A stretch of DNA of 64,000 bases from Escherichia coli phage AZ21, in sequence record LC788708.1, one strand, 5' to 3'. This document shows, one piece after another, positions 3,164 to 44,853 of the stretch. A program made the translations under genes and the position numbers. The notes beneath the pieces were generated by a model that was not told the origin of the DNA, searched no databases, and worked only from the letters and a program-made list of their open reading frames with translations. The stretch's first letter is position 1; each line of letters begins with the position of its first letter.

Positions 3164-3172
3164 TAAAAACAA

Positions 3173-3198
3173 GGAGATCTTCGGGTCTCCTTTTTCTT
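3173..3198 (+). terminator. rho-independent terminator after nrdA
   Basis: GGAGATC-UUCG-GGTCTCC hairpin followed by TTTTT. Confidence 0.7.
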
Positions 3199-3209
3199 TG
3201 AAATTTTAC

Positions 3210-3239
3210 TTGCTAATCGCTACCAGATTTGCTATAATA
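3210..3239 (+). promoter_or_regulatory. sigma70 promoter (T5 early type)
   Basis: TTGCTA-18-TATAAT upstream of nrdB. Confidence 0.6.
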
Positions 3240-3269
3240 TTCCTGAAATAGTGAGAAAGAGGAAAATCA

Positions 3270-4415
3270 ATGACTACTTTACTAAACCTGAATTGGGATC
3301 ATACTAACGCTGACCTTTTCCTGGGAGATTCTCTCGGTATCGCAGATTATGTACGTGTAGCACATCCAGAACTAGAACGTCTGGCACTTCTGCAACGCTC
3401 TCAATTTTGGACTGAAACTGAAATCAGTCTGGAAGCAGATAAGAAACAATGGCCCAATCTCCCTCGTGAAATTCAGGAAATTACACTCCTGAACTTAGCA
3501 TGGCAAACTCAAACTGATTCCTTTATCAGTCGTGCCCCTGAAGCAGCTATTATGCCACTTGTAAGTCGTCCAGAATTGGAAGGTATGCTCAAACAGTGGA
3601 GCTATTTTGAAGACCTGCATAGTCGTGCTTATAGCAATATTATTCGTAATGTGCTGACTGATCCAGCAGAATTTATTGATTCTGTAACCAAAAACCAAGA
3701 AGCATTCGCGCGCATCGCTGATTCTGTTGAACTATTCGATGAACTGTACCAGTTAGGTCAGTATTTCATCGCAGTACGCGATCATCGTGGAGACAATACA
3801 TATCCAGAAACTGAGTTCCCTGAAGTTAAACGTGAAACTCAGGCTAAACTATTGGACGCTTACTTTGCGATCTATGGTCTGGAAGCAATGCAGTTTTACG
3901 CATCCTTTGCATGTACCTTTGCATTAGCAGAGAACGATATTCTGCAAGGTATTGCTAAAAATCTGCAATTAATCGCTAAAGATGAAGCTCTGCACACTCA
4001 GATGTCCAAAGCAATCATCCAGATTATGTTTCAGCAATTTGACAAAGATCTGGTAGATGAGGCAGTAGCTAAAGCACCAGCACAGCTCCTGAAAACTCTG
4101 AAAACTGAAATTGAATGGGGTCATTTCATTTTCAAAGGTCGTAGTCTGATTGGCTTGAATGCAGAACTTCTAGAAGAATATCTGTACTTTGTGGGGCGCA
4201 ATGCATTTATGCACATCGGTGTAGAATGGCCTAGTCACTTACCAGTAATCACCAAAAACCCTATTCCGTGGATCATGAACTGGTTGGATACTACTTCTCT
4301 ACAGCCTGCTCCGCAAGAAATCCAGATTGGTGCAGCTTACCGTGTAGGTCAGGTAACTGAGACCTCTACTGATACTCTGAAAGATCTGGGTAATGAATTT
4401 GGAGATTTCTTATGA
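3270..4415 (+). CDS. nrdB: ribonucleotide reductase small subunit
   Basis: 381 aa directly after nrdA with RBS; length and helical di-iron-type sequence consistent with NrdB. Confidence 0.8.
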   Translation: MTTLLNLNWDHTNADLFLGDSLGIADYVRVAHPELERLALLQRSQFWTETEISLEADKKQWPNLPREIQEITLLNLAWQTQTDSFISRAPEAAIMPLVSRPELEGMLKQWSYFEDLHSRAYSNIIRNVLTDPAEFIDSVTKNQEAFARIADSVELFDELYQLGQYFIAVRDHRGDNTYPETEFPEVKRETQAKLLDAYFAIYGLEAMQFYASFACTFALAENDILQGIAKNLQLIAKDEALHTQMSKAIIQIMFQQFDKDLVDEAVAKAPAQLLKTLKTEIEWGHFIFKGRSLIGLNAELLEEYLYFVGRNAFMHIGVEWPSHLPVITKNPIPWIMNWLDTTSLQPAPQEIQIGAAYRVGQVTETSTDTLKDLGNEFGDFL

Positions 4416-4945
4416 TTACAGCAATGTATGCAGTTGGGCCGAATGGGGAGTTCGGCCTCCGCGGTAAACTTCCATGGGGTTCCTTCAAAGAAGAACTAGA
4501 TGCTTTCTATTCTCAACTGGACGTATTAAATCCAGATAACATCATCATTGGTGCGGGTACTTATTTAGCTCTTCCATACGCCGTTAGAGAACGTATGATT
4601 AGGGCTTCTGACCTATTTATTCGTGTTGATCGTCCACTGCCAGACGATATTACGCATGATATTTACACTCCAATTTCTAAGATTGGGGATACATTACCTA
4701 CGTTTCTGAAAGATCAGCAGACAGTGGTTTTAGGTGGCGCAACATTATTGTACGAAATGTATATTCATGGACATATTGAGAGTGCTTTTGTATCCACAAT
4801 CTTTAGTAGTCAAAAACTAGAGGCAGATGTACATCTGGATAATATGATTCTAGATTACAACTATGAATCTACTCGTTTAGTTTACGCAACTGGCGCAAAC
4901 AGTGATAACAGCCTGCGATTTGTACAGGAATTGGTTACTTATTAA
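4412..4945 (+). CDS. frd: dihydrofolate reductase
   Basis: 177 aa; N-terminal GxxxxLPW and central GGATL pattern like FolA; start overlaps nrdB stop. Confidence 0.65.
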
Positions 4946-5799
4946 TGGATCAGTATATCGAAGTTGGAAAACGCATTCTATCAGATGGTCAGTGGGTAAC
5001 GAATCCTAGAACAGGGGTTCGTTGCCTCACTATTATTGATGCAGACTTTACTTTTAACGTAGGTGCAGGGGAATTTCCCCTTATTACTACTCGTAAGGCG
5101 TTTGCAAAACAAGCAATAATGGAAATGATTGGGTATCTACGTGGATATGACTCAGCAGCACAATTCCGTGCTATTGGTGTTAACACATGGAATGCTAATG
5201 CAAATGAAAACTCAGCTTGGCTAGACAATCCATACCGTAAAGGTGAGGATGATATGGGACGAGTCTATGGTGTTCAAGGACGTCAGTGGACTAATTCCGA
5301 TGGTCTTATGTTTGACCAACTAGCCAAGATTTATCATAATCTGAAAAGGGGCATTGATGATCGTGGGGAAATTCTAACCTTCTGGAATCCGGGAGAGTTC
5401 TCAAAGGGTTGCTTACGTCCATGTATGCACACTCATCAGTTCTCTATTTTGGGAGATACATTATACCTGAACTCTTTCCAGAGATCTAATGACTTCCTGT
5501 TAGGCCAAGTATTTAACATGGTTCAGTGCTATACGCTTCTAGCATTAATGGCTCAGATTACAGGCCTTAAACCAGGAATTGCACGCCAGAAGATTATCAA
5601 TCTTCATATCTATGAGGATCAGTATAATGTTTTGATGGAGCATAAGCAATTCGATCGTAAACCTTTTGCACCTCCTACTCTAGAAATTAATCCAAATATC
5701 CGAACTCTGGAGGATGTATTGACCTGGGTAAATAAGGATGATTTTACTGTTCGTGGTTACGAACACCACCCTGCTATTGCATACCCCTTTACGGTATAA
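4945..5799 (+). CDS. thyA: thymidylate synthase
   Basis: FWNPGEF and catalytic [10 protein letters not shown] motifs. Confidence 0.9.
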
Positions 5800-5802
5800 T
5801 AT

Positions 5803-6156
5803 ATGTTGACAATACTATTATTTGTTATATTCTTCCTGAAACATTTTATGGCTGATTATCCCCTCCAAACTCCATACATGTTAAGGAAGACCCACAAAAT
5901 AGGGTGGAAACTTCCATTACTAACCCATTCTCTAGTACATGCTGGACTAACCTTTATAATTCTTACTATGTTCACATCACTAGGAATGGCTATAACTTTA
6001 GCTATAATGGAATTAATTCTACACTTTATCATAGATTACTGGAAAGCACAATGCTGTAAATACGATATAAGTGATTCCAGGTTTTGGATAGCTTTAGGAT
6101 TTGATCAGTTACTCCATTACTTAACCTATGCTCTCATAATTTTAATTATAATTTAG
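5803..6156 (+). CDS. hypothetical membrane protein
   Basis: 117 aa, several hydrophobic helices. Confidence 0.4.
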   Translation: MLTILLFVIFFLKHFMADYPLQTPYMLRKTHKIGWKLPLLTHSLVHAGLTFIILTMFTSLGMAITLAIMELILHFIIDYWKAQCCKYDISDSRFWIALGFDQLLHYLTYALIILIII

Positions 6157-6159
6157 CTC

Positions 6160-6190
6160 AAATAGCCCTTCGGGGCTATTATATTTAAAT
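6160..6190 (+). terminator. terminator-like hairpin
   Basis: ATAGCCC-TTCG-GGGCTAT hairpin then AT-rich run. Confidence 0.55.
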
Positions 6191-6250
6191 TTCATTTGCT
6201 TATTTAGTGAAATTTAAATATAATATATTTTATAAATTGGAGGTACACAT

Positions 6251-6508
6251 ATGGGACTCTTTAGAAAGAAAGTTTATTTAACAGAAGAGCAAGAACACAA
6301 ACTTCTTACTCTATCAGAATACTATCATTTACCATATGATTATTTTGTAGATAGAGCAATAGAGGAATTCTTAGATAGAGAATTAGAGGCTATAAAACCT
6401 AAGCCTCCTGAGCCGTCTTTAGCATCAAAGGGTCACCAAAGAGAATCCCCAAGAGTTCCGCCAATGCCCCCAATTCCACCAAAAACTAGAGTTGTAACAG
6501 AGTTGTAA
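6251..6508 (+). CDS. hypothetical protein, proline-rich C-terminus
   Basis: RBS GGAGG then ATG. Confidence 0.4.
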   Translation: MGLFRKKVYLTEEQEHKLLTLSEYYHLPYDYFVDRAIEEFLDRELEAIKPKPPEPSLASKGHQRESPRVPPMPPIPPKTRVVTEL

Positions 6509-6524
6509 TAGAAGGTAAAAAATA

Positions 6525-7004
6525 ATGTCGGTTTTCCACATTTACACAGATGGTGCTTGTAAGTCTAACCCAGGTCCAGGTGCTTGGGGTTTTATTGTCT
6601 ATAATGATAACGACGATCGTTTAGGTTCTAAATCTGGTTATAATCCTAAAACTACAAATAATGAGATGGAACTCACAGCTATTGTAGAAGCTCTACGTTG
6701 GTCTGTTAAAAAAGATAATAGACCAATTGCTATCTATACTGACTCTGCTTATTGCAAAAATGGCATGGAAAGCTGGATGTTTTCTTGGCAAAGGAAAGGC
6801 TGGAAGAAAGCAGATGGTGAAGTTCCTCTTAATCTAGAACTTTGGCAGGAAGCATTTAAATTAACACAGCAGTATATCAACTTTCATAATACTAATCCTA
6901 CCTTTATTAAGGTTAAAGGACATTCTGGTATTAGTGGTAATGAAGCTGTAGACGCCTTATGTAATACAGTTATTACTGAAGCTGAAATGGCTGAGATGTT
7001 ATAA
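6525..7004 (+). CDS. rnh: ribonuclease H
   Basis: RNase HI motifs: IYTDGAC, EMELTAI, YTDSAY, GHSGISGNEAVDAL. Confidence 0.8.
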   Translation: MSVFHIYTDGACKSNPGPGAWGFIVYNDNDDRLGSKSGYNPKTTNNEMELTAIVEALRWSVKKDNRPIAIYTDSAYCKNGMESWMFSWQRKGWKKADGEVPLNLELWQEAFKLTQQYINFHNTNPTFIKVKGHSGISGNEAVDALCNTVITEAEMAEML

Positions 7005-7021
7005 ATAAATTAAAAATTTTC

Positions 7022-7050
7022 TTGCTTAAAGCCCTCTAATTTAGTATAAT
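7022..7050 (+). promoter_or_regulatory. sigma70 promoter (T5 early type)
   Basis: TTGCTT-17-TATAAT. Confidence 0.6.
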
Positions 7051-7077
7051 ATTCGTATTGAAAGTGAGGAGGGATTT

Positions 7078-7356
7078 ATGCGAATTTATAACTCAAATTC
7101 ATTAGGATTTAAACCATTGAGAAAACGTGCACAATCACCTCGTCAAATAAGAAAGGCTAATATTGGTGAGCCAGAGACACGCCTTCCACCTCCTCCAGAA
7201 CAACGTTTAGTTTATCTGGACGAAGAATTAGCTGAACGCGAAAGAAAAGCTCAAGAAGAGATTGAGCGTAAGAAAATGTGTACTGCTCCAGCGTATAATA
7301 AAGGGGCGTATCAATACGTCTCAGATGCCGAACAAGCTAAGATGGTTGGTAGATAA
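7078..7356 (+). CDS. hypothetical protein
   Basis: RBS GAGGAGGG then ATG. Confidence 0.4.
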   Translation: MRIYNSNSLGFKPLRKRAQSPRQIRKANIGEPETRLPPPPEQRLVYLDEELAERERKAQEEIERKKMCTAPAYNKGAYQYVSDAEQAKMVGR

Positions 7357-7372
7357 TTTTTAAAAAATTCAT

Positions 7373-7401
7373 TTGCTAAACGCTTCAAATTCTCGTATAA
7401 T
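7373..7401 (+). promoter_or_regulatory. sigma70 promoter (T5 early type)
   Basis: TTGCTA-17-TATAAT then CATAAATTGAT leader. Confidence 0.65.
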
Positions 7402-7439
7402 ATACTTCATAAATTGATAAACAAAAAGGAAAACAAATA

Positions 7440-7955
7440 ATGGCTAAGCAGAAAAACGCAAAAACTCAAGCAGCTCCGGCAGTTAAAACTTTCCCGAAGA
7501 CTGAGGCTAATCGCAAAGCTCGGCTGGAACGTCACCTGCGTAAGCATCCTACAGATGCTCAGGCTGCGCAAGCACTGAATAATCCGGCTCCGATTCGTCA
7601 GAAGCCTAAAGCTAAAAATGCCACCCGTAAATCCTACAAAATGGTTATGTATGTAGAAAATTACGGCCACAAATCTGTCCCAGTTTCCCTGAGCTTTAAC
7701 GCTGGGGCTGAATTGTTCTCTCGTAATGGTATGTCTATGAAAGACTATGAGAAGGCAGTTAACCAGAAGCGTAAACCAACAGCAGATGTATTGCGCGATA
7801 CTCGTGGACAGTTTGGTTCTGTTAAGCCAAGTATCTTTGGCGTAGAGTATAGTAAAGATAATGTTCGTGCTCTGTGTTACGGTGTAGGTATTAAGTTCAC
7901 GGGTGATTCTGCTCGTAAATCTGCTAAACCAGCTCGCAAGCGTAAAGCGAAGTAA
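7440..7955 (+). CDS. hypothetical basic (K/R-rich) protein
   Basis: 171 aa, lysine/arginine-rich termini. Confidence 0.45.
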   Translation: MAKQKNAKTQAAPAVKTFPKTEANRKARLERHLRKHPTDAQAAQALNNPAPIRQKPKAKNATRKSYKMVMYVENYGHKSVPVSLSFNAGAELFSRNGMSMKDYEKAVNQKRKPTADVLRDTRGQFGSVKPSIFGVEYSKDNVRALCYGVGIKFTGDSARKSAKPARKRKAK

Positions 7956-8019
7956 TAGATAAATAGGGGCGAAAGCCCCTACAATCGACTAATTCTCTAA
8001 CTAATCAAGGATATTTTTT

Positions 8020-8235
8020 ATGTTCTCTAAGAAACCACGTTCTGTTACTGAAATCGTTGCTTCCTTTACCACTATCACTGATGAGCTTCAAGCTCGTATT
8101 GAGGCTGATCAAAAAATCGCTGCTGATATTCAGAAACAGCAGGAAGAACTCGCTTTAAAGTTGGCTGAAACCAACAAGAGTGAAAAATCTGCCCAAACTA
8201 TTATGGAAAATATCCTTAAACTGCTGGGCAAGTGA
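8020..8235 (+). CDS. hypothetical protein
   Basis: RBS AAGGA then ATG. Confidence 0.35.
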   Translation: MFSKKPRSVTEIVASFTTITDELQARIEADQKIAADIQKQQEELALKLAETNKSEKSAQTIMENILKLLGK

Positions 8236-8279
8236 TTTAAATCAGGGGGGGGCGAAAGCCCCTCTTATTTGGAGAAACT

Positions 8280-8516
8280 ATGCGTAATTTTGTAGCAAAG
8301 AATGATTTTAACCGTGCTAGCACTCATAAGTCCGCTAGAGATTATACACGACTTTCTAGTCATGAGGTAATGGATACCTGTTATGAAGAGCTGGAAGGTA
8401 GCTGGAATGAGTGTCCCGACTTCTCTATGGAAGAGAACTGGGATGTCAGTGAGGATATGCTTCCTGGTTTTAAAGACCCCAAGAAGTGGGAGTCTATTAA
8501 AGAGACAGCTCTTTAA
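8280..8516 (+). CDS. hypothetical acidic protein
   Basis: RBS GGAGAAA then ATG. Confidence 0.35.
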   Translation: MRNFVAKNDFNRASTHKSARDYTRLSSHEVMDTCYEELEGSWNECPDFSMEENWDVSEDMLPGFKDPKKWESIKETAL

Positions 8517-8544
8517 TAGTTTTCTACACAATAAAGGATAAGTT

Positions 8545-9246
8545 ATGAAAGTAAAACCATTTGGTATGCTAGATATTGAATCTCTAGGAACTCCAGGAGA
8601 TTGTGGTACTACCCATATCGCAATGCCTTCATTCGCTTTTGTGGCTATGCATGGAATTGATAAAGACCCTGATCTAGTATTTGTTACTTTAGATGTACAA
8701 GATCAACTTAATTCTGGTGCCAAAGTTACAGCATCTACTCTAGCATTCTGGATGGATCAGGCTAAACATAGCCCGTCTGCTATCCACATTATGGAAGCTA
8801 TGAATGAGCGTAATCCAAAACTGGTTGCCTTCCAAAATGGTAAACATCATTGCACTAATAAACTTGGCTCTAACCATGCTGCCTTCTCTATGGCTCAAAA
8901 TATTATGGAGTTGGCTCTAGGCGAAAATGCTTTGTATTATGGCAATGGCCCAGAGTTTGATATGACTATCTACTCTGCAAACACTTTCCATGCTGGAACC
9001 AATGAAGAAATAGTTCCGTGGAAATTCTGGAACTTGGGTAATGTTAGATCTCTTCGTAATCTCTGGATGCAAACTGGCTATAGTTATAAAGCTCTAGAAA
9101 CCGAAGGTATTAGCTGGGCAATAGCTAAAATGGAGAAGATGGACACCATTCGTTATGGGATCTATCCGGTTAAGCACGACCCAGCATTCGATGCCCTAGT
9201 TGAGAGCTATTGTGTTGCAGCTATGATCGAAAAAATGAAAATTTGA
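8545..9246 (+). CDS. putative DEDDh-type 3'-5' exonuclease
   Basis: Exo I-like LDIESLG near N-terminus and Exo III-like YPVKHDPAFDA near C-terminus. Confidence 0.5.
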   Translation: MKVKPFGMLDIESLGTPGDCGTTHIAMPSFAFVAMHGIDKDPDLVFVTLDVQDQLNSGAKVTASTLAFWMDQAKHSPSAIHIMEAMNERNPKLVAFQNGKHHCTNKLGSNHAAFSMAQNIMELALGENALYYGNGPEFDMTIYSANTFHAGTNEEIVPWKFWNLGNVRSLRNLWMQTGYSYKALETEGISWAIAKMEKMDTIRYGIYPVKHDPAFDALVESYCVAAMIEKMKI

Positions 9247-9316: not shown

Positions 9317-9499
9317 ATGCCAGTATCTAAAAATGTTCGTAAAAATGGTAAGAAAGCTACTCGTAATCTGGGTATCCGTCGTATGGCTGAACGTCAATCA
9401 GGTATCCAGAAAATCTTTGATCTGCTAAATCGTGCTAATCCTAAAATTGATAACAGTAACGATACTGTTCTGCGCACCCTGCTGGCAATTGGTCTGTAA
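9317..9499 (+). CDS. hypothetical basic small protein
   Basis: 60 aa. Confidence 0.35.
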   Translation: MPVSKNVRKNGKKATRNLGIRRMAERQSGIQKIFDLLNRANPKIDNSNDTVLRTLLAIGL

Positions 9500-9552: not shown

Positions 9553-10191
9553 ATGACTACTCGTATCTCTAAAACTCGCGCTCTGGCAACTATCAAATCT
9601 CTGGAAGCTAAAATCCGTAAAGCTACTGAACAACAGCTTCTGATCGCTGTTGGTGAAGGTAAGGATAAAAACCAGGTTGTAGTTGGCGCTGCAATCGAAG
9701 TAGATGCCCTGTCTACTCGTATTAAAACTGATTTCCAATCTCTGCTGGATATGATGTCTCAGCGTGATCGTATTAAATCTGCTCTGATTAAGAGCAATGC
9801 AGAAACAATCGTTGAGATTGGTTCTCGTAAGATGACTGTTGCGGAAGCAATTGAAGCTAAGCGTTCTATGGAGCTTAAAGCTCAGCTGCTGGCTAACATG
9901 CGTAAGCAGTTCCATGCCGCTACGATTAAGTTTAATACGCAGAAAGCACAGTTTGATGCTAAATATGAGCGTTTGCAGGATAGCATGGCTACCCGCGATA
10001 AGAAAACTTCCGAAGATGAAGTTAAAATGCAGCTCAATCTGCTGGAACTCAAGAATACTCCATTCTTGATTGATCCGCTGGAACTGGAGAAGCTGATTAA
10101 GCAGCATGACGAGGAATACCAGGACTTTGCAACAAATGTTGACTTTGTTCTATCCGAGTCTAACGCCTCTACCTTCATTGAAGTAGAGTAA
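9553..10191 (+). CDS. hypothetical coiled-coil protein
   Basis: RBS AAGGAAG then ATG; 212 aa. Confidence 0.45.
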   Translation: MTTRISKTRALATIKSLEAKIRKATEQQLLIAVGEGKDKNQVVVGAAIEVDALSTRIKTDFQSLLDMMSQRDRIKSALIKSNAETIVEIGSRKMTVAEAIEAKRSMELKAQLLANMRKQFHAATIKFNTQKAQFDAKYERLQDSMATRDKKTSEDEVKMQLNLLELKNTPFLIDPLELEKLIKQHDEEYQDFATNVDFVLSESNASTFIEVE

Positions 10192-34138: not shown

Positions 34139-34876
34139 TCGGATTCGCACATGCTCTAGGGCAGTTTTTCATCTACTATAAATATCCTAGGCCGGTTTTC
34201 CTATACAGGGCGGTTATGGGGAGGGCGGTTATTTCTAGACAATAAAATTTACTCTTGTCAGTCCAGAAATTACTGTCGGATTTGCACATTGTGTTTCTAG
34301 AAATTTATGGTCGGATTTGCACAATTGCCTAAGTTTTTAGGAACATATAATCTCCTGAAAATGGCAGCATTATTTCGGGCCGAAGGCCCATGATTGCCTG
34401 AGTTTTTTTAGAGACACAGAAATTTTCACTTGTCAAGCTATTTTGCCCCATTTTGCTAATAAAATTTTACTTTATCTCCCCTAATCTCAAATTAACCCAA
34501 ATCTTCTCAACTCTTCTCCAAAATCCCCGCAAATCAGGTGCTCCGCACCAAACATGCGCCCCTCCCGTAGTTCCCCCAAGTTTCTCTCGATCTCTCAACT
34601 TCTCCCCAAACTCATACAATCACACACCCTCCAATCGAAGTCACAAAAATCTTGTCGGATTCGCACAAATAAACCCATGTCGGATTTGCACATATTCTAG
34701 TTAATTCCACAGGATTGATGCGCAGCATCGGATTGCTGGAGTTTTTGGGAGAATTCATTGTCGGATTCGCACACTATAAAAATTTTTCGGGTCGGATTTG
34801 CACACTACCAAAAATTGTCGGATTCGCACATACACGCCCACGCGTAATCCATGGGGGCAAATGTCGGATTTGCACA
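34139..34876 (+). repeat. array of nine direct copies of GTCGGATT(T/C)GCACA
   Basis: Copies at about 34139, 34275, 34310, 34654, 34679, 34760, 34791, 34817, 34863, irregular spacing. Confidence 0.85.
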
Positions 34877-34881
34877 AAAGC

Positions 34882-34904: not shown

Positions 34905-35098
34905 TGAATGCGAATGATAATGAGAATCATTTGCATTTAAAAAGCGGAATGAGAATGATAATAATTCGCATTTAAGAATGGAAGTGAGAATTATTCAGGA
35001 AGTGAAACGATTCTCATTTAAAAAGTGAAACGATTCTCATTTAGAAAGTGAAACGCGAATGATAATGATTCGTATTTAAGAATGGAAGTGAGAAACAC
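34905..35098. repeat. GAATGATAATGA / AGTGAAACGATTCTCATTTA / CGCATTTAAGAATGGAAGTGAGAA repeat block
   Basis: AGTGAAACGATTCTCATTTA twice in tandem (35001, 35025); C(G/A)(C/T)ATTTAAGAATGGAAGTGAGAA twice (34968, 35071). Confidence 0.8.
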
Positions 35099-35109
35099 TA
35101 TTATTTAAG

Positions 35110-35118
35110 TTATCCACA
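35110..35118 (+). promoter_or_regulatory. DnaA-box consensus TTATCCACA
   Basis: Exact 9-mer; TTATCAACA variants at about 35122, 35171, 35183. Confidence 0.6.
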
Positions 35119-35199
35119 GACTTATCAACAGCACGATTTGACTTGACAGAATCCTAGCCATTTTGAGGCGTTATCAACAGACTTATCAACAGCTTATCC

Positions 35200-35219
35200 T
35201 ACTGTATAAATATACAGTA
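35200..35219. promoter_or_regulatory. LexA-box-like palindrome TACTGTATAAATATACAGTA
   Basis: CTGT-N8-ACAG with AT-rich core, close to the E. coli SOS-box consensus. Confidence 0.55.
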
Positions 35220-35413
35220 TTCCTATGCAGTGAATAATTCTAATATACAGCTAAAACGCTCTCAAACGCATTCTAACGCGTTTAATTTTGGTGGGGATAC
35301 TAAAACAAGGGCAAAATTGGAGGAGGCTTGAAAATTAGTTAGCTCGCTAATGATCACACACGGCGACACGTAACACCCTAACCATTAGCAGGCTAACCAT
35401 CGCGGGCGTGGTC

Positions 35414-35434
35414 AAATGAGAATGATTCTCATTT
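35414..35434. repeat. 21 bp palindrome AAATGAGAATGATTCTCATTT
   Basis: Same GAGAATGAT core as the upstream repeat block. Confidence 0.8.
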
Positions 35435-35585
35435 GTGGATTGGGGGCGCTTCCTGATAGTTGCGCCCCGTGATTATTATAGTAGGGGGCAACCGTTACGC
35501 TTTGCCCACTCCCGCCACTCATCTTGGTGCCTAGACTTGCGACGGCGTACTAAAAACCGCTTGTACCAGTGATTAAACCATCGTT

Positions 35586-35789
35586 TCATAAATCCTCCTC
35601 CGGTAGTCGATGCGTGATCTTTTCCTCCTCCCCATAGGAATCCACCAAATACTGATAATAACCATCGTGATCATAAATCACTTTATCATATTCCCCACGC
35701 TCGACCGCTTGCCGATTTTCCAACGTATCAGGCACAAAGAAAGTATCAACGGTAACAGTAGTTTTAGTTACAACAATTTTATCACTCAT
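35586..35789 (-). CDS. hypothetical pre-early protein
   Basis: 67 aa acidic; last gene of minus-strand block. Confidence 0.4.
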   Translation of the reverse strand: MSDKIVVTKTTVTVDTFFVPDTLENRQAVERGEYDKVIYDHDGYYQYLVDSYGEEEKITHRLPEEDL

Positions 35790-35915
35790 AATGCCATCGC
35801 CCCTAGAATGAGAATGATTATCAATATCATTGTGAAGCCATTACCAAATCGTAAACGCTGGGAATGTTTCCCAGCGGTATTATTAGACTTATGGCTTTGT
35901 GTTTTTCGCCACCAG

Positions 35916-36116
35916 CTATTCACGGTAGACGCTCCATCCGTCTAGCTTCCATTCTTCCCCCTTGCGAATATTGAAAAACCAATCATTAAAATTGTAACCA
36001 TCTTCTGACATGATCACGCCGTTTTCTTTCATGTACAAAAATTCATCACTAGTAAAATATTGATTACTAACTTTAAAACCTTGTTTCATTTTTTCTAGTG
36101 CTTCATCTTTAGTCAT
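35916..36116 (-). CDS. hypothetical pre-early protein
   Basis: 66 aa; start overlaps upstream stop. Confidence 0.4.
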   Translation of the reverse strand: MTKDEALEKMKQGFKVSNQYFTSDEFLYMKENGVIMSEDGYNFNDWFFNIRKGEEWKLDGWSVYRE

Positions 36117-36457
36117 TGCGCCACCTTTCGAAACGCTGTTTCAATACTATCCGCAGTGGATTGAATATATGCGCCTTTGAGTATCAGCCGCTCGGTGCAT
36201 ATCTTGCGAAAAATATTAATAAAATCGTCCTCATTTTCTGCGATTAATGCCTCACCCATAACCTGAACGTCGCAAGATGCAAAGGTCAAAAATTGAAACG
36301 CTAGTTCACGGGCAACGACCGCATTGATTTTATAATGCGCCTTGCCTTCATAGATATTAATAACGCCCTTATAAGCTGGCGAAAGCTGATTTAAGTAGTT
36401 TGCTAATAATGCCGGACGGCAATTAGCAACAAAACGATTGCCCTCATAAATAACCAT
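36113..36457 (-). CDS. hypothetical pre-early protein
   Basis: 114 aa. Confidence 0.4.
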   Translation of the reverse strand: MVIYEGNRFVANCRPALLANYLNQLSPAYKGVINIYEGKAHYKINAVVARELAFQFLTFASCDVQVMGEALIAENEDDFINIFRKICTERLILKGAYIQSTADSIETAFRKVAQ

Positions 36458-36580
36458 TTGATAGTCTCCCGATTAGATAGCCAGATAATAACATAAAGAT
36501 CCCCAATAAAAGAGGATCATTCTTAAATAAGGTGGCGGTAAAACCGCCAACCATTGCAAGGAGAATAACAATAATGCTTT

Positions 36581-36793
36581 TCATAGTACCCCACGAAACG
36601 CAGCGTAAAAGGTGGCAAAGTGTTTAACTGTTTCAGCAATCACGTTGCCGCGCTTATCAAATTTCTTTTCTGTAACACGAAAGGCATTTTTATTACGTGC
36701 TACATATTCGATTTTACAATCTTCCCGCTCGAACGTGTTAACATCCACCAGCTTAAAGCCTTTCGAACGTGCAAGAGAAACGTTGCGGATCAT
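36581..36793 (-). CDS. hypothetical pre-early basic protein
   Basis: 70 aa. Confidence 0.35.
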   Translation of the reverse strand: MIRNVSLARSKGFKLVDVNTFEREDCKIEYVARNKNAFRVTEKKFDKRGNVIAETVKHFATFYAAFRGVL

Positions 36794-36795
36794 TT

Positions 36796-36978
36796 TTATT
36801 CCCCTTTACTAGTCATGCAGCCCAGCAGATAAGAAAATACAGCGATGCCAGCACCAATAGTAACCATTGGTTTTATATTTACTAAACCGCAATAGGAATC
36901 CTGAATACCATAAGCGGTGGCGAAAAGAGTCAAAATAGCGCCCAAGATACCCGCTAAAATAGCTCGAAAAATAACCAT
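36796..36978 (-). CDS. hypothetical small membrane protein
   Basis: 60 aa, two hydrophobic helices. Confidence 0.35.
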   Translation of the reverse strand: MVIFRAILAGILGAILTLFATAYGIQDSYCGLVNIKPMVTIGAGIAVFSYLLGCMTSKGE

Positions 36979-37027
36979 TTGTAATACTCCTCTAGTTAGT
37001 GGGGCGAAAGTAACGCCCCGTTATTAA

Positions 37028-37258
37028 TTACATTAAAATAATTTTTGCCGCTTGTTTTTTGGTACAGTGTTCCGCTTTCAGGGTGTCCAGCAAAAAGCCC
37101 GCCGTTTGCTGATCGATTTTATCGGCATTATATAGTTCTTGGATGGTGTTATAAGTTTTAGCAATGCCGTATTCTTGTACCATTTCTTGAATAATCCAGC
37201 GATTTGATACCCAGCCTTTACCAGTGAAAAGAGCGTCAGAAGAAGAGTAAGCAACCAT
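37028..37258 (-). CDS. hypothetical pre-early protein
   Basis: RBS GGAGG then ATG on minus strand; track ORF trimmed. Confidence 0.4.
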   Translation of the reverse strand: MVAYSSSDALFTGKGWVSNRWIIQEMVQEYGIAKTYNTIQELYNADKIDQQTAGFLLDTLKAEHCTKKQAAKIILM

Positions 37259-37364
37259 TTTAAGCCTCCAAATTTTTGGGAAAATTTTCAACCGTCCTCA
37301 AACGGTGTAAAGGCATTATAACAAAAAAGGCCGCCATAAAAGGCGACCTTTACAAAACTTTACA

Positions 37365-37859
37365 TTAAACTACTTGTAAGGATTCAATATTGAAACATCG
37401 TTTCAGTTCGTCATGCAAAACGGCATATTCATCCCATCGGGTACTATCAGGAATATAAACAAGCTGTTTTAATCGGTTTGCATATATTACCGCTTTGTTA
37501 TCAATTATCTCGACGCCACCATATTTAATAATTAATTTCATGACGGAATTAATAGGATCGCCGCCGTTTACATATGCGCCGGATTTACTTAATTGATAAT
37601 GATAAAGGCTTGCATATACGTTTTCATTTTCATACCATTCGCCAGTCTCTTCGTCTTCATAGCCATCGCTACCAAAACGAGAAGCATTATCAACAGCCAT
37701 TTCATGAGCAAAAGCGTCCAGATCCGTACCAGCAGGAACAAAATATTCCTCGGTATTCCCTTCCCCGCAATAGCCAGTATGACAATCGACTAAAATGATC
37801 ATATCATGTTTAGCCTTGCTCACTTCCCCTAGCGAGAAGCCGTATTTTTCTTCTAACAT
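37365..37859 (-). CDS. hypothetical pre-early acidic protein
   Basis: RBS AGGAGA then ATG on minus strand; 164 aa. Confidence 0.45.
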   Translation of the reverse strand: MLEEKYGFSLGEVSKAKHDMIILVDCHTGYCGEGNTEEYFVPAGTDLDAFAHEMAVDNASRFGSDGYEDEETGEWYENENVYASLYHYQLSKSGAYVNGGDPINSVMKLIIKYGGVEIIDNKAVIYANRLKQLVYIPDSTRWDEYAVLHDELKRCFNIESLQVV

Positions 37860-37923
37860 AATTAGTCTCCTATTAATTAACAAGGAAATAGTAAAGCGGG
37901 GAAATAATCCCCGCTAGATATTA

Positions 37924-38157
37924 TTACTCGTTTTCGGTGTTAGTGGTAAAAGTAGAGATATCGATACCTTTTACCATTTCATCGATCATCTCAGCGATGT
38001 TAAAACTTTGCACCATTTCTAACATTGCCGCTTCCATAGCCGCCCCTGCTACCGCTTTCGCTTTCTGATTAGTCGGGGCGTACTGGTCAACCGCTACACT
38101 CAGCAGGTTAGCGATCACTACACGACCAATCGGCGTATCAATATAGCCTTTGATCAT
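37924..38157 (-). CDS. hypothetical pre-early protein
   Basis: 77 aa; start overlaps upstream gene end by 20 nt. Confidence 0.4.
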   Translation of the reverse strand: MIKGYIDTPIGRVVIANLLSVAVDQYAPTNQKAKAVAGAAMEAAMLEMVQSFNIAEMIDEMVKGIDISTFTTNTENE

Positions 38158-38929
38158 AAACGGTGCTTTTTTTAGCCGCTACTTTCGTGATTTGAGTTAG
38201 TGCAATTTTACCAGCTTCCAGTTTTGCAGCGTTTACAACAGCGGATTTATTAGCGGCAACGATATTAGCGATCTTGGTCATGGTATTTTTTCCTTTGTTT
38301 TCAGTAGTTTGAGTATTAACGCTTTGAGTGTTAGAGCTTACAACCTGTTTTTCAATATTGTCAACTGGTTTTAGTGTAAATCCAGCATTTGCAACGTTTG
38401 ATTCATTCCCATACTCTAAATAATCACTAGGGATCAACATGTTGCCACTAGCGCGTTCAAAACATAACACGCCAGTTGTAGAAATTACATTACTATCAGC
38501 ACTTTTGTAATTAGCTGATAGTTCACGCCAAATGCTAGTTAATAACGATCCGACACTATCAGTCCTGATATTACTTACTTTTGTTGCTGTTACTTGCTCT
38601 TTTTCTTGCACGTTATATAATCGCGCAATGTAACCACTATTAGATTCACTATAACCAACAATGATAAAATCAATATCTCTTCCACGTTGATTGCGGAAAA
38701 TGTGATAATCACGGTTGAAAATTACTAGCGCCCTTTTCTGGTCTAGTAATTGTGTGAAATCTTCAACTGAATAATGAGTACCCTCATCGTCTAAAATTCT
38801 ATCATGAATCTTTTCGATAATAGTAGCGGTATGCTGTACGCTTGCCGCGCTACTACCCTCTAACAGATTGCGCAAACTGCCTTTAATAATAGTGGCGTTT
38901 GCTGGTACTGCAATTCTTACAGTAGACAT
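38138..38929 (-). CDS. hypothetical pre-early protein (first gene of minus-strand block)
   Basis: 263 aa; RBS GGGAGA then ATG on minus strand. Confidence 0.5.
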   Translation of the reverse strand: MSTVRIAVPANATIIKGSLRNLLEGSSAASVQHTATIIEKIHDRILDDEGTHYSVEDFTQLLDQKRALVIFNRDYHIFRNQRGRDIDFIIVGYSESNSGYIARLYNVQEKEQVTATKVSNIRTDSVGSLLTSIWRELSANYKSADSNVISTTGVLCFERASGNMLIPSDYLEYGNESNVANAGFTLKPVDNIEKQVVSSNTQSVNTQTTENKGKNTMTKIANIVAANKSAVVNAAKLEAGKIALTQITKVAAKKSTVYDQRLY

Positions 38930-39195
38930 TTTATTTTGTCTCCCTCGTTAATCGGTGAGTGAATGATAAGGGTAATTTTCTAGCATAGGCAAATATTATT
39001 TTACTTTTTTATTTTCCTTGCCTAGCGTCTAATTTTATGCTAACCGCGCAGCGGTGCAATAAAGAGCAAACCACGGCGAAGCCACCAGCCCGACGCATTG
39101 AGGCTTTACTTTAATATTACCTTACAGCGTTTAGCTCGTTAGAATGCGTTTTGGGCCACTTAAAATTGATTGCAGTTGTTAACACTACCTTTCTA

Positions 39196-39215
39196 CCCTG
39201 TATATTTATACAGTG
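39196..39215. promoter_or_regulatory. LexA-box-like palindrome CTGTATATTTATACAG
   Basis: Exact reverse complement of the 35202-35217 core; lies upstream of the minus-strand block. Confidence 0.55.
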
Positions 39216-39224
39216 GAATAACCT

Positions 39225-39233
39225 GTGGATAAG
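39225..39233 (-). promoter_or_regulatory. DnaA-box consensus (TGTGGATAA on + strand)
   Basis: Exact reverse complement of TTATCCACA; second copy at about 39298-39306. Confidence 0.6.
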
Positions 39234-39554
39234 TCTGTGCAAAAGTCCTTATATCACCGCCTATCGTGTCAAGTTATTTTGTGCTGTGGAAAACATTGTG
39301 GATAACTTAAATGATAGTGCTTCTCACTTAGGCTAATGATTTCTTATAGTTATTATTTCTCATTAATTTATAAGTATATTATATATTATCAAATAGTTAG
39401 TTGGCTAATGAGATTTTCCGTGATTAATAGTCTGCTAATAATTCAGGTCGTTACAATCCACCAGCATGATTATCATTCTAGCAATTATTAGTCTGCTATC
39501 TTTCCGATACATACTAACAAATAAAAGTCAATTAATTTATTTCATAAAATAAGT

Positions 39555-40818: not shown

Positions 40819-41226
40819 ATGACTAACGCAAAAACCGCAAAATTCGCATGGAATGAAGAAAACACTCAGAAAGCTGTTACCATGTACCAGCAGTTAATCA
40901 ACGAAAACGGTTTAGATTTTGCAAATAGCGACGGCCTGAAAGAGATTGCAAAAGCAGTAGGCGCGGCCTCCCCCGTATCCGTTCGGTCAAAATTGACCAG
41001 TGCAAAAGCCTATCAAAAAAGCGATAAGCCGCGTAAAGTTGGCGGCGGTAGCTCTGTGCGTAAAGCTCACTATGTGCGAGTAATTGCAAAACACGCTATC
41101 GATTCCGGTATTATCAAAGACGCCGATGATCTGGCAAGCCTTGAAAGTGCTAAACTGGAAACGCTGGACGCGGTGGCGCAACTGTTAGGCGTTGCCGATG
41201 AAGTAAAACAAGCCGTAGGTGAATAA
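40819..41226 (+). CDS. hypothetical pre-early protein, possible A2 homolog
   Basis: 135 aa; RBS TAGGAG; sits on the inner side of the A1-like gene with one small ORF between; name assigned by position and size only. Confidence 0.4.
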   Translation: MTNAKTAKFAWNEENTQKAVTMYQQLINENGLDFANSDGLKEIAKAVGAASPVSVRSKLTSAKAYQKSDKPRKVGGGSSVRKAHYVRVIAKHAIDSGIIKDADDLASLESAKLETLDAVAQLLGVADEVKQAVGE

Positions 41227-41601: not shown

Positions 41602-43272
41602 ATGATTATTTCCGCAGAAAAACAAACCGTTATCCTGAAAATGGCCGCTGATTTCAATTTCTACGGTAAACGCCTGCGCGCCACTAAACTGGAGGTCTGC
41701 GACGATATTTCAAAAGCGGTCTACGATACAACGAAACACTCCACCGCTATCTGCGACTGGCTGGAAGCAAATAAACCAGCGAAACCAAAAGCGGCAAAAG
41801 TAGCAAAAGCCATTAAAAACGGTGAGCGCCCCGAAGCGGCTGGGATTGTTTCTAGTACCGTGGAGCAGTGGGAAGTAAAACAAGGTAAACGCTTTATTAT
41901 TACATCGATTCAGAATAATACTTTCCCGCATAAAAACTTTTTAGCCTCACTGGAGCAATTTGCTAAATATATCGGGGCTGATTTGCTCGTTTCTAAGTAT
42001 ATTTATAATAAAAACGGTTTTCAAAATGGGGAAGGTGCTGACGGAATCAAATATGATTCCGCGTTTGATAAATATATTTGCAGCAAAAACGTGTTTTTGA
42101 ATAACCGCCGCTTTGCTTTCATGGCTGAAATTAATGTTTTGCCTACCGCAGATTATCCGCTTTCTGGATTCGCAGAAACTGCAACGGCTTTAAATATTGA
42201 AGGTCTGGCAATTGGTCACGCTAAAATTACCGCTGAAAGCGTACCAGCTTTAAAAGGTGAAGTAGTGCGCCGTATGTACTCAACCGGAACGGCAACGCTC
42301 AAAAACTACATTCAGCAGAAAGCAGGACAAAAGGCCGAGGCGCTGCATAACTTCGGTGCGCTTATTGTTGAGTTCGACGAGGACGGGGAATTTTTTGTAC
42401 GCCAGCTTGAAACGATGGACGAAAGCGGGGTATTTTATGATCTGAATGTGTGTGCTACTCCTGCCGGATGCTATGAAACATCGGGGCATGTTTTAGGCTT
42501 GCAGTATGGCGATATTCACGCCGAAAAATTAGATGAGGAGTGCGCCGCCGCGTCATGGGGGCATGGTGATACTTATGGGCTAGTAGATATTCTTAAACCA
42601 AAATATCAGTTTGTGCATGACGTGCATGATTTTACATCGCGCAATCATCATAACCGCGCATCGGGTGTATTCCTAGCAAAACAGTACGCCGCCGGACGTG
42701 ATAAGGTTATTGATGATCTTATCGATACGGGGCGCGTGCTGGAATCAATGGAGCGTGATTTTTCTCAAACAATCATTGTTGAATCGAATCACGATTTGGC
42801 GTTATCCCGTTGGCTTGATGATCGTAATGCTAACATCAAAGACGATCCAGCAAACGCAGAACTGTATCACCGCCTGAATGCTGCAATTTACGAGGCAATC
42901 GGTGAACATGACGAAACGTTCAACGTGCTAGATTATGCGCTGCGCAAGGTTGCAGGTTGTGAGTTTAACGCCATTTTCCTGACCACTGACCAATCTTTCA
43001 AGATTGCAGGCATTGAATGCGGCGTACACGGTCACAACGGCATTAATGGCAGTCGTGGCAATCCCAAACAATTTAAGAAATTGGGCAAGTTAAACACTGG
43101 TCATACTCATACGGCAAGCATTTACGGCGGGGTATATACCGCTGGCGTAGCTGGTAGTCTGGATATGGGTTACAACGTTGGCGCGTCAAGCTGGACGCAA
43201 ACTCATTTAATTACCTATGCAAACGGTCAGCGCACTTTGATTGACTTTAAGAACGGTAAATTTTTTGCGTAA
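41602..43272 (+). CDS. A1: A1-like pre-early protein, calcineurin-like metallophosphoesterase/nuclease
   Basis: 556 aa, the length I recall for T5 A1; metallophosphoesterase motifs YGDIHAE, HDVHDF, ESNHD, GVHGHNG, GHTHT; RBS AATGGAG. Confidence 0.75.
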   Translation: MIISAEKQTVILKMAADFNFYGKRLRATKLEVCDDISKAVYDTTKHSTAICDWLEANKPAKPKAAKVAKAIKNGERPEAAGIVSSTVEQWEVKQGKRFIITSIQNNTFPHKNFLASLEQFAKYIGADLLVSKYIYNKNGFQNGEGADGIKYDSAFDKYICSKNVFLNNRRFAFMAEINVLPTADYPLSGFAETATALNIEGLAIGHAKITAESVPALKGEVVRRMYSTGTATLKNYIQQKAGQKAEALHNFGALIVEFDEDGEFFVRQLETMDESGVFYDLNVCATPAGCYETSGHVLGLQYGDIHAEKLDEECAAASWGHGDTYGLVDILKPKYQFVHDVHDFTSRNHHNRASGVFLAKQYAAGRDKVIDDLIDTGRVLESMERDFSQTIIVESNHDLALSRWLDDRNANIKDDPANAELYHRLNAAIYEAIGEHDETFNVLDYALRKVAGCEFNAIFLTTDQSFKIAGIECGVHGHNGINGSRGNPKQFKKLGKLNTGHTHTASIYGGVYTAGVAGSLDMGYNVGASSWTQTHLITYANGQRTLIDFKNGKFFA

Positions 43273-44038: not shown

Positions 44039-44118
44039 TAGTTGATTTATTATTGCCCGCTGATAGATAGCGGGCAATGCTGGATAAACTACATCCCTTT
44101 AATGGAGAACGTAACAAA

Positions 44119-44853
44119 ATGAATCAAGTTAAAACGAATATTTCCCGTAACTTCCCGCATATTTCCCGCGTCATGATCTGGGATCTTGATGGCACTATCG
44201 TTAATTCATTCCATCGTGTAGCGCCTTGCTTTGATAGTGAGGGTAATCTAGATTTAAATAAGTATAAGAATGAGGCTTGCAAACATGATTTAATAATGCA
44301 GGATACTTTATTGCCTTTGGTGGAATATATGCGCCAATGCATGAATGACGCAAATACTTTAAACATTATTTGTACCGCTCGATTAATGAGCAAATCGGAT
44401 TATTATTATTTGCGCAAACAAGGCTTGCGAGGGCGTGGGGATAGCAATATCCGCGTGTTTTCCCGCGACACGCTGCATAAATATTTTGAAGCTGATAAGG
44501 TTAGCGAGATATACCACAGTAAAGACGCAGTTTATAAATCGTATTACTTTGAATTATTTAAACAGCTATATCCGAACGCTGATTTCACAATGATTGATGA
44601 TCATAAAGGTGTATTATCAGCGGCGGCGTCATACGGATTTAAAACGCTAGACGCGCAAGCCGTTAACGATATTCTATCAATCGGCGTGGCATTGATAGGC
44701 GGAACCTTTATTGATGAATCTCTCGATGATGATAATGATTATCAGTTCCTAGCCGATCGATTGAAATTATGTTGGGAAAGTATGACCGAAGAAGAACGCG
44801 CAGAATATAGTTGCAGCCCGCAACAATATATTGAGAAATTAAAAGTTGCGTAA
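44119..44853 (+). CDS. dmp: HAD-family 5'-deoxyribonucleotidase (Dmp-like)
   Basis: HAD motif I VMIWDLDGT near N-terminus; 244 aa from the RBS-supported ATG; same CCCTTTAATGGAG leader as the A1-like gene. Confidence 0.7.
   Translation: MNQVKTNISRNFPHISRVMIWDLDGTIVNSFHRVAPCFDSEGNLDLNKYKNEACKHDLIMQDTLLPLVEYMRQCMNDANTLNIICTARLMSKSDYYYLRKQGLRGRGDSNIRVFSRDTLHKYFEADKVSEIYHSKDAVYKSYYFELFKQLYPNADFTMIDDHKGVLSAAASYGFKTLDAQAVNDILSIGVALIGGTFIDESLDDDNDYQFLADRLKLCWESMTEEERAEYSCSPQQYIEKLKVA

Follow-up and report, generated by a model that had tools for sequence, protein, structure and literature searches.

Phage T5 halts after injecting 8% of its genome and restarts through A1 and A2, and how it does so has been an open question since the 1960s. 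In a stretch of 64,000 nucleotides from Escherichia coli phage AZ21 (LC788708.1; hereafter the window, numbered from its first letter), a minus-strand block of pre-early genes is bracketed by two inverted modules, each built of DnaA boxes and a palindrome. Which protein would such a palindrome serve, and why should it stand at both ends of one operon? By sequence, the palindrome nearest the injection stop region, known in T5 as palindrome D, is a near-consensus predicted LexA operator; a second LexA-like site stands at the other end of the operon, and such sites recur beside DnaA boxes in other genera of the Demerecviridae. We suggest that the modules could dock two host proteins, LexA and DnaA, on the first DNA to enter the cell. 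The elements concerned are as follows.

35086-35219, plus strand: module A, equal to the T5 inverted repeats (IR) IRC'-spacer-IRD' with palindrome D (AY587007 9330-9462, reversed); of the two modules the closer to the injection stop region.
39196-39329, minus strand: module B, equal to T5 IRC-spacer-IRD (AY587007 6022-6152); between the divergent pre-early operons.
35586-38929, minus strand: second pre-early operon, nine annotated coding sequences (AZ23 annotation), between the modules.

Both palindromes were scored with a Lewis-type heterology index (HI) matrix rebuilt from 28 E. coli SOS boxes, on which the training sites themselves range from 0.93 to 10.47 (median 5.07).

35200-35219: LexA-like operator A, TACTGTATAAATATACAGTA, T5 'palindrome D'; HI 0.72.
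39196-39215: LexA-like operator B, the minus strand reading CACTGTATAAATATACAGGG; HI 4.37.

Site A thus scores below every one of the 28 reference sites (P = 8e-11 per 20-mer), and the next-best LexA-like site in the 64 kb has an HI of only 8.87. From the exact score distribution at the base composition of the window, 1e-5 sites are expected per window at HI <= 0.72 and 5e-3 at HI <= 4.37. Because one central base is all that separates site A from the textbook consensus TACTGTATATATATACAGTA, this conclusion is independent of matrix details. The original prediction had taken both palindromes for near-consensus SOS boxes, and the scores bear it out: by sequence they are near-consensus LexA-type operators, far beyond chance.

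The modules in which these sites stand are clearly related to one another. Module A and the reverse complement of module B align without a gap over 134 nt, with 100 identities (74.6%) and a score of 66, compared with -11.6 +/- 5.6 for random windows (maximum 7); the two module halves are also the longest inverted repeats of the region (I1, 63 nt at 83%; I2, 52 nt at 83%). An inverted repeat of ~180 bp had been predicted. The repeat is confirmed, its uniform length is not, as the 134-bp core is followed by ~45 nt of poorly conserved sequence and then by a second conserved island. All of the motifs that had been listed (DnaA box, CTTGACA, palindrome, inner motif) were recovered in both modules, in the same order and inverted.

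35103-35118 (plus) and 39305-39320 (minus): ATTTAAGTTATCCACA.
35143-35148 (plus) and 39267-39272 (minus): TTGACA of CTTGACA, in the spacer.
In both modules: AGACTTATC(A/C)ACAG.
35202-35217 and 39198-39213: the CTGTATAAATATACAG palindrome.
35264-35278 (plus) and 39137-39151 (minus): AAACGCATTCTAACG, inner island of modules A and B.
35251-35278, plus strand: inner island of module A, CTAAAACGC then AAACGCATTCTAACG, common to both modules.

A DnaA box had been predicted in each module and is present, not singly as predicted: there are four DnaA-type boxes per module, in two pairs, with a gap of 3 bp within a pair.

35110-35130 (35110/35122), plus strand: pair 1 of module A, TTATCCACA (consensus), gac, TTATCAACA (one mismatch).
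35171-35199 (35171/35183), plus strand: pair 2 of module A, TTATCAACA, gac, TTATCAACA, and a partial third box, TTATCC.
39224-39232, 39236-39244, 39285-39293 and 39297-39305, minus strand: four consensus boxes of module B, in two pairs.

The partial third box of module A abuts the palindrome. Five of the 11 consensus boxes (TT(A/T)TNCACA) of the window, and all three of its perfect TTATCCACA boxes, fall inside the two modules (268 bp), a concentration beyond chance; taken over the whole window, 11 boxes are no excess over shuffles (mean 7.8).

Much of this architecture is familiar from T5. The 6.5 kb surrounding the modules are 100% identical to Escherichia coli phage AZ23 (Tequintavirus) and 88-93% identical to many T5-like phages. 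In full-length T5-like records the region maps to ~4.4-10.6 kb on the opposite strand, which places it in the left terminal repeat, within first-step-transfer (FST)/pre-early DNA, and means that the plus strand of the window is the reverse of the usual T5 orientation. GenBank AY587007 (T5) annotates inverted repeats C and D at 6022-6060 and 6112-6152, D' and C' at 9332-9372 and 9424-9462, and a 20-bp 'palindrome D' at 9330-9349; these are exactly the modules of the window. Homology to T5 extends over 220 nt at 90% for module A and over 133 nt at 76% for module B, with long invariant runs in the four-way alignment and no gap between window and T5 across the spacer between the arms. By sequence, then, the modules are the IRD'-spacer-IRC' and IRC-spacer-IRD repeats of the T5-family terminal-repeat (first-step-transfer) DNA. 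A host or plasmid origin of the module was rejected, as nothing similar was found among 5,426 E. coli genomes or 72,556 plasmids. They are Repeat Regions 2 and 3 of the T5 left terminal repeat, for which Davison cites Heusterspreute 1987 and Wang 2005.

A comparison of 25 T5-like phages (Davison 2020, bioRxiv 10.1101/866236) described the 131-bp IRC-spacer-IRD and IRD'-spacer-IRC' repeats, their eight DnaA/DnaA* boxes in pairs 3 bp apart, a constant 52-bp spacer and a variable distance between the two modules (1851-4258 bp). The same paper proposed that membrane-bound DnaA keeps the DNA at the injection stop signal, pointed to a second FST band, observed by Rhoades, near the position of IRC, and counted palindrome D among the candidate cleavage sites of a restriction-site model. 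Papers of 2023 and 2026 (PMC10644984 among them) likewise describe the T5 stop signal as repeats, palindromes and DnaA boxes, for which functional studies are said to be lacking. For T5, annotation and publications therefore already cover the inverted repeats and their DnaA boxes as well as the palindrome (under the name 'palindrome D'), and finding them here is a rediscovery. LexA, SOS and promoters are not mentioned in Davison 2020, and a full-text literature search for LexA or SOS box together with T5, T5-like or Tequintavirus yielded nothing relevant, the older T5 papers (Heusterspreute 1987, Wang 2005, Davison 2015) lying outside its coverage. That palindrome D is by sequence a LexA operator, and is conserved as such across the Demerecviridae, appears to be new.

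Conservation was assessed in 57 loci retrieved via the neighbouring A1 protein, independently of the palindrome. The genes in question lie in the window as follows.

41602-43272, plus strand: A1.
40819-41226, plus strand: A2.
44077-44853, plus strand: dmp.

All untruncated Tequintavirus-like loci have a module A homolog carrying a LexA-like site (HI 0.72-2.63), and nearly all of them have the module B site (HI 3.1-6). CTG and CAG are unchanged in 30/30 distinct module A sequences, and the variants of site A that do occur (a central AAA/TTT flip, CTGG, CTGTAC, ACAC, GTAC) are all tolerated in known SOS boxes. The module B copy is less constrained, since CAG has become CAA in 4 of its 29 distinct sequences. 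The more distant phages with LexA-like sites, and the identity of their A1, are these.

Klebsiella Sugarlandvirus: A1 identity 74%.
L037: A1 identity 67%.
Pectobacterium My1: A1 identity 65%.
Proteus Novosibvirus: A1 identity 42%.
Vibrio D260: A1 identity 34%.
Vibrio Chester: A1 identity 34%.
Aeromonas AhSzw-1: A1 identity 34%.

Sugarlandvirus, Novosibvirus, D260, Chester and AhSzw-1 have exactly two sites of HI <= 8 in 18-20 kb each; at HI <= 7 there are two in My1 and three in L037. The sites bracket the second pre-early operon, ~30 to 300 nt from consensus TTATCCACA boxes, in all of these phages except Vibrio Chester, in which both sites lie at one end of the operon and DnaA boxes only at the other. 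Besides two short motifs, little surrounding sequence is visibly shared in the most distant phages. No LexA-like site was found in 17 other, more distant A1-bearing contigs (~250 kb in total).

Almost all variation among the distant phages falls in the central four bases, where LexA is tolerant of changes. CTGTAT and ATACAG are otherwise fixed, the exception being one Sugarlandvirus site with its left arm changed to CTGGTT, while A1 and A2 fall to ~32-45% identity (A1 down to 34% in the Vibrio and Aeromonas phages). Phage operator/repressor pairs usually drift together. The constancy of the half-sites while phage proteins diverge, together with the adjoining DnaA consensus, thus favours a site for a conserved host protein over one for a co-evolving phage protein. 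A scan of IMG/VR for TTATCCACA followed within 5-35 nt by CTGTAT-N4-ATACAG returned 82 stretches, against about one expected by our own estimate; most are T5-sized or T5-like contigs, or contigs with A1, A2 and dmp, including metagenomic A1 at 38-55%. The palindromes and their DnaA boxes are conserved in related phages, and the original prediction withstood this attempt at refutation.

A 117-kb A1-bearing Rhizobium phage has A1 amid tail, lysis and replication genes; as it is without first-step-transfer architecture, it is not usable as a host-switch comparison. Adjacent DnaA and LexA boxes also occur on ~20 IMG/VR contigs without T5-like genes in the retrieved stretch (including L076, L104, L108, L134, L087, L097, L139, L142, L119 and L126). 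One integrase-bearing contig and a P2-like one (GC 0.59), the latter with a perfect consensus SOS box, are among those without T5-like genes, and in ~45-kb contigs with podovirus-like tail-fibre genes the motif stands in a 1.1-kb non-coding gap. A metagenomic group has, in a symmetrical layout, two tandem consensus DnaA boxes, a LexA-like palindrome and again two such boxes (L091 5354-5416, L093 4598-4671, L110 1825-1887, L130 6464-6526); L091, L093 and L130 also have, ~1-2 kb from the palindrome, a terminase gene with 29-32% identity to the T5-like one. Two divergent A1-bearing metagenomic contigs (A1 39-44%) carry DnaA arrays at the position of module B, between divergent operons, with 7 consensus boxes in ~400 bp (L083 2425-2821) and 10 in ~860 bp (L094 7275-8134).

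Two further motifs travel with the modules. A CTARAACGC element (CTAAAACGC then AAACGCATTCTAACG) lies ~25-60 nt beyond the LexA-like palindrome in each module, and CTARAACG-like versions are visible just inside the palindromes in most of the distant phages (including Klebsiella, Proteus, Vibrio and My1-like ones; L059-L063, L037, L039). At the outer module edges (35088-35101 and 39314-39327), GTGAGAA(A/G)CACTAT is conserved in Sugarlandvirus, My1 and the Proteus phage.

What lies between the modules was predicted as a nine-gene minus-strand block and matches the deposited AZ23 annotation exactly. One gene of the block, by PHROG and Pfam matches, is homologous to the T5 endonuclease, which nicks DNA at the abasic sites that host Ung produces. 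Two overlapping open reading frames (ORFs) of the block, of 263 aa (38138-38929) and 77 aa (37924-38157) on the minus strand, together make up one ~335 aa protein (PHROG 4263, Pfam DUF7566) that is a single 320-aa ORF in My1. Identity in most close relatives is 94-99% for the short C-terminal ORF and 43-49% for the long N-terminal part, which for 37924-38929 suggests a split gene whose N-terminal part is hypervariable. The best promoter-like site of the operon lies outside both modules.

38963-38992, minus strand: TTGCCT, 18 nt, TATCAT, with an A-rich upstream tract; equal to the putative T5 promoter T5P4 (AY587007).

Site B lies ~205 bp upstream of the -35 of this, the only good promoter of the block, and site A 367 bp downstream of the block's last stop codon. 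No promoter-like hexamer pair stands at the same position in both modules. The spacer TTGACA is invariant in all four window and T5 copies, none of which has a -10 partner for it (16-18 nt downstream in module A), and a promoter around the palindromes or the spacer TTGACA was rejected for want of that partner and of a -35/-10 pair shared by the two modules. A directional -10 element in the palindrome is disfavoured because its centre flips between AAA and TTT among relatives. Promoter-like sites in the region number 26, compared with 20.5 +/- 4.8 expected, which is no significant enrichment, and no Rfam RNA family was detected there at E <= 0.1. Neither LexA-like site overlaps a conserved promoter. 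The suggestion that the palindromes, as operators, couple pre-early transcription to the SOS state is not supported, given the distance of site B from the promoter, the position of site A downstream of the block, the lack of a shared promoter and the flipping centre; they are probably not classical transcriptional operators.

The sequence at 35380-35480 differs from T5, which has the palindrome C terminator there. It holds a Fur-like palindrome (35414-35436) and then a GC-rich hairpin, GGGGCGC...GCGCCCC (~35443-35468), whose T-rich tail is on the plus strand, so that it resembles a terminator for transcription from module A rather than from the operon.

The orientation of the operon has changed within the family. 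In My1-like phages and Sugarlandvirus it is inverted relative to A1, with gene order preserved and breakpoints inside the repeat modules.

L037, ~1100-5770: inverted operon.
L039/L040, ~1030-5000: inverted operon.
L059 (Sugarlandvirus), 5433-9141: inverted operon.

Homologs of window ORFs 37924, 37365 and 35586 lie between the palindromes in the My1-like loci, and of the first two in the Sugarlandvirus locus, where the sequences just inside the palindromes are swapped as well. The Proteus, Vibrio and Aeromonas phages have the T5 orientation, and close loci share one orientation in 36/36 cases. Active inversion was rejected because, of 537 phage records that match a synthetic query for the inverted junction, not one covers it. 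In the block and the adjacent genes on the A2 side, neither PHROG nor Pfam detected an invertase, an integrase or a transposase. The outer flanks, AAGAATGG and AGGCTAAT, show no target-site duplication, and a transposon with terminal inverted repeats was discarded for the lack of both transposase and duplication. Of the invertible or mobile segment that had been considered, an inversion on the evolutionary scale remains, and current inversion or mobility does not. Gene order indicates that inversion with breakpoints in the modules occurred in the history of the family; the modules have served as recombination substrates, which is unlikely to be their selected function.

What, then, could the modules do? 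We favour a nucleoprotein boundary or anchor formed by LexA and DnaA over a classical SOS-regulated operon, because neither site overlaps a conserved promoter. Each module would be a docking site for the two host proteins, with two DnaA-box pairs and a predicted very high-affinity LexA operator, the latter at the inner edge, towards the operon. Resident LexA dimers and DnaA would occupy the module sites once the first 8% of the genome had entered the cell as naked DNA. A cell holds about a thousand LexA molecules, so a consensus operator on naked DNA should fill quickly. Both ends of the second pre-early operon would thereby be marked by a static nucleoprotein boundary of the two proteins; since LexA-like sites flank the operon in either orientation, such a role would be orientation-independent. 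DnaA bound to a DnaA box can stop transcribing RNA polymerase, and module A may likewise be a roadblock at which polymerase coming from the pre-early operon is kept from entering the stop region. Module A, the better-conserved copy, lies in T5 ~270-330 bp inside the injection halt point (palindrome D at 9330-9349, estimated shear point at 9618, 7.9% nick at 9661-9668), and might belong to the injection-stop or anchoring complex, for which Davison proposed only DnaA. We give about even chances to the proposal that composite LexA and DnaA docking modules act as a static boundary or anchor at both ends of the operon and as part of the injection stop.

A bolder version, which we regard as improbable, is that the Demerecviridae use LexA structurally: LexA and DnaA would clamp the FST DNA at palindrome D, and their removal would be needed for second-step transfer. 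The clamp could be removed by A2 displacing or capturing LexA at the operator, or by self-cleavage of LexA after the A1-driven destruction of host DNA. The colicin Ib gene is LexA-controlled, and as a corollary A2 acting on LexA-type operators could trigger ColIb abortive infection by derepressing it. Given the A2 gene, phage lambda too becomes sensitive to the ColIb plasmid (Davison 2020, 10.1101/866236).

Several points weigh against a boundary or anchor of LexA and DnaA. We infer the occupancy by both proteins from sequence alone, and the LexA matrix is one rebuilt from 28 sites and not a curated one, though the result is insensitive to matrix detail. Among close relatives conservation extends over the whole module and does not single out the palindrome. 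Some phages have a degraded site B, and others are reported to be without IRC and IRD entirely (Davison 2020, 10.1101/866236), so the bracketing pair is not essential. The proposal does not explain by what means proteins on the DNA inside the cell would halt the part yet to enter. T5 also plates on common recA cloning strains. LexA cleavage is therefore not required for infection, and if LexA matters, the relevant event is its bound state or its displacement by a phage protein.

A2 remains the main rival to LexA as the binder of the palindrome, which would then coincide with or mimic the LexA consensus while being the target of a phage protein, either the A2 dimer or an A1/A2 nuclease that releases the stalled DNA by cutting a palindrome, as in Davison's restriction-site model. 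A2 is a double-strand-DNA-binding dimer that associates with A1 and is needed for second-step transfer (Davison 2020, 10.1101/866236), the paper in which palindrome D is a candidate cleavage site. Its homologs accompany A1 in every motif-carrying lineage, and a single-sequence AlphaFold model of it (no alignment; pLDDT 76, pTM 0.41) is all-helical, with weak and insignificant matches to helix-turn-helix (HTH)-like and homeodomain-like folds. Against this, A2 yielded no LexA-like domain to Pfam, a PDB sequence search or a fold search of the model, and the half-site has stayed fixed through a divergence of A2 and A1 in which an operator and its repressor would normally co-diverge. An accidental 15/16 match to an unrelated host consensus is very unlikely, the adjoining boxes are unambiguous host DnaA sites, and the composite motif also occurs on the contigs, P2-like and integrase-bearing ones among them, that have no A1, A2 or dmp in the retrieved stretch. 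We consider a phage protein an unlikely owner of the palindrome, and classical SOS regulation an improbable purpose. In the latter case LexA would repress a promoter overlapping each palindrome, and the pre-early block or a small transcript would rise under SOS. The sites are of operator quality, and weak hexamers touch or adjoin both: TTAACA at 39179, 16 nt and TATATT at 39206 (plus strand) at site B; TATACA at 35211, 16 nt and AATAAT at 35238 (plus strand) at site A; and TTGAGA at 35265, 17 nt and TAGAAT at 35237 (minus strand) just beside site A. The touching hexamers, however, occupy non-homologous positions of the two modules, the best promoter is ~205 bp away from site B, site A lies beyond the end of the operon, and the region shows no significant excess of promoter-like sites and no Rfam RNA. 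The AAA/TTT flips and the persistence of the sites at both ends of the operon after its inversion also speak against such regulation.

That same inversion, in L037, L039/L040 and L059, is an argument for regarding the modules primarily as recombination substrates, the ends of an invertible or exchangeable cassette for hypervariable pre-early genes. Gene content and length between the palindromes do vary, from 1.6 to 4.0 kb among close relatives and over the range of distances given by Davison 2020. The single orientation of the close loci, the empty junction search and the absence of recombinase genes and of a target-site duplication all run counter to it; arms that are only 75% identical are poor substrates for homologous recombination, and it would be left unexplained why they consist of host-protein consensus sites. 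We hold this to be quite improbable. Least of all do we expect the DNA structure itself to be the signal, with palindromes or modules extruding hairpins or cruciforms, or the inverted modules pairing, so as to block DNA passage or form a knot; this older kind of proposal for the stop signal draws on the richness of the region in palindromes and repeats and seems to us very improbable. The palindrome hairpin is an AT-rich 8-bp stem of -4.6 kcal/mol, and the modules fold no better than shuffled sequence (z-scores -1.5 and -0.85); the hairpin or cruciform was rejected on this weak, non-significant folding. Conservation, moreover, tracks base identity at LexA and DnaA consensus positions and not mere complementarity, CTGTAT and ATACAG never co-varying to other complementary pairs.

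A LexA match at the most conserved palindrome, beside DnaA boxes, turns a descriptive feature into simple experiments on a second abundant host protein. If LexA does bind, this would be an unusual use of it, co-opted by an obligately lytic phage, away from promoters and in the first DNA to enter. If it does not, an element of 16 bp, conserved in phages as far apart as those of E. coli, Vibrio and Aeromonas, would be the prime candidate target for A2 or A1.

Palindromes of another kind were also noticed in this part of the genome. Fur-box-like palindromes occur at 34910-34970, 35415-35436, 35804-35828 and 44725-44749. Matches to GATAATGATAATCATTATC at 14 or more of 19 positions number 19 in the window compared with 4.6 in shuffles (best 17/19), and 15 of the 19 lie in the terminal-repeat region (34.9-44.8 kb); several coincide with the T5 DRC repeats and with palE-palJ, which adjoin module A. 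T5 uses the Fur-regulated receptor FhuA. Fur is not mentioned in Davison 2020 (10.1101/866236). At 34139-34877 TCGGATT(C/T)GCACA occurs nine times and can be extended to the near-palindrome TGTCGGATTCGCACA; the copies are known repeats, the direct repeat D series of T5, and span the end of the terminal repeat.

The modules can be set beside several known systems. Like Gin/Cin/Hin-type switches, they are inverted repeats that bound a segment occurring in both orientations across a phage family; unlike them, they come with no invertase gene and no orientation polymorphism among close relatives, and their arms are 134 bp long and 75% identical in place of short, exact crossover sites. The E. coli datA and DARS loci are non-origin DnaA-box clusters. 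Their likeness to the phage arrays lies in the clustered consensus TTATCCACA boxes, with which datA and DARS bind DnaA without initiating replication; the phage arrays of predicted DnaA sites, in contrast, each stand beside a LexA-like operator and occur twice, the second copy inverted.

LexA has been co-opted by other mobile elements, among them CTX phage, coliphage 186 (through tum) and the colicin operons, and gp7 of Bacillus phage GIL01 reportedly stabilises LexA on DNA, a result said to be that of Fornelos in 2015. What these share with the T5-like case is a mobile element with high-quality operators for the host repressor instead of a repressor of its own. They are, however, temperate phages or plasmids in which LexA sits on a lysis/lysogeny or toxin promoter and the response is SOS-triggered, whereas the T5-like phages are obligately lytic, have their sites in the first-entering DNA and show no evident promoter under their control. 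T5 Repeat Regions 2 and 3 are the same element as the modules of the window, with the same DnaA-box pairs, spacer, inverted layout around the rightward pre-early operon and position at the stop signal; the difference is that the published palindrome is a plain palindrome or possible restriction site, and is here scored as a LexA operator across Demerecviridae genera. Finally, the palindromes share CTGT-N8-ACAG and an AT-rich centre with the SOS boxes of Gammaproteobacteria (recA, sulA, umuDC, dinD and the colicin genes). Chromosomal SOS boxes overlap or closely follow a promoter and the phage sites do not; these lie instead within DnaA-box arrays, as an inverted pair 4 kb apart in a virulent phage.

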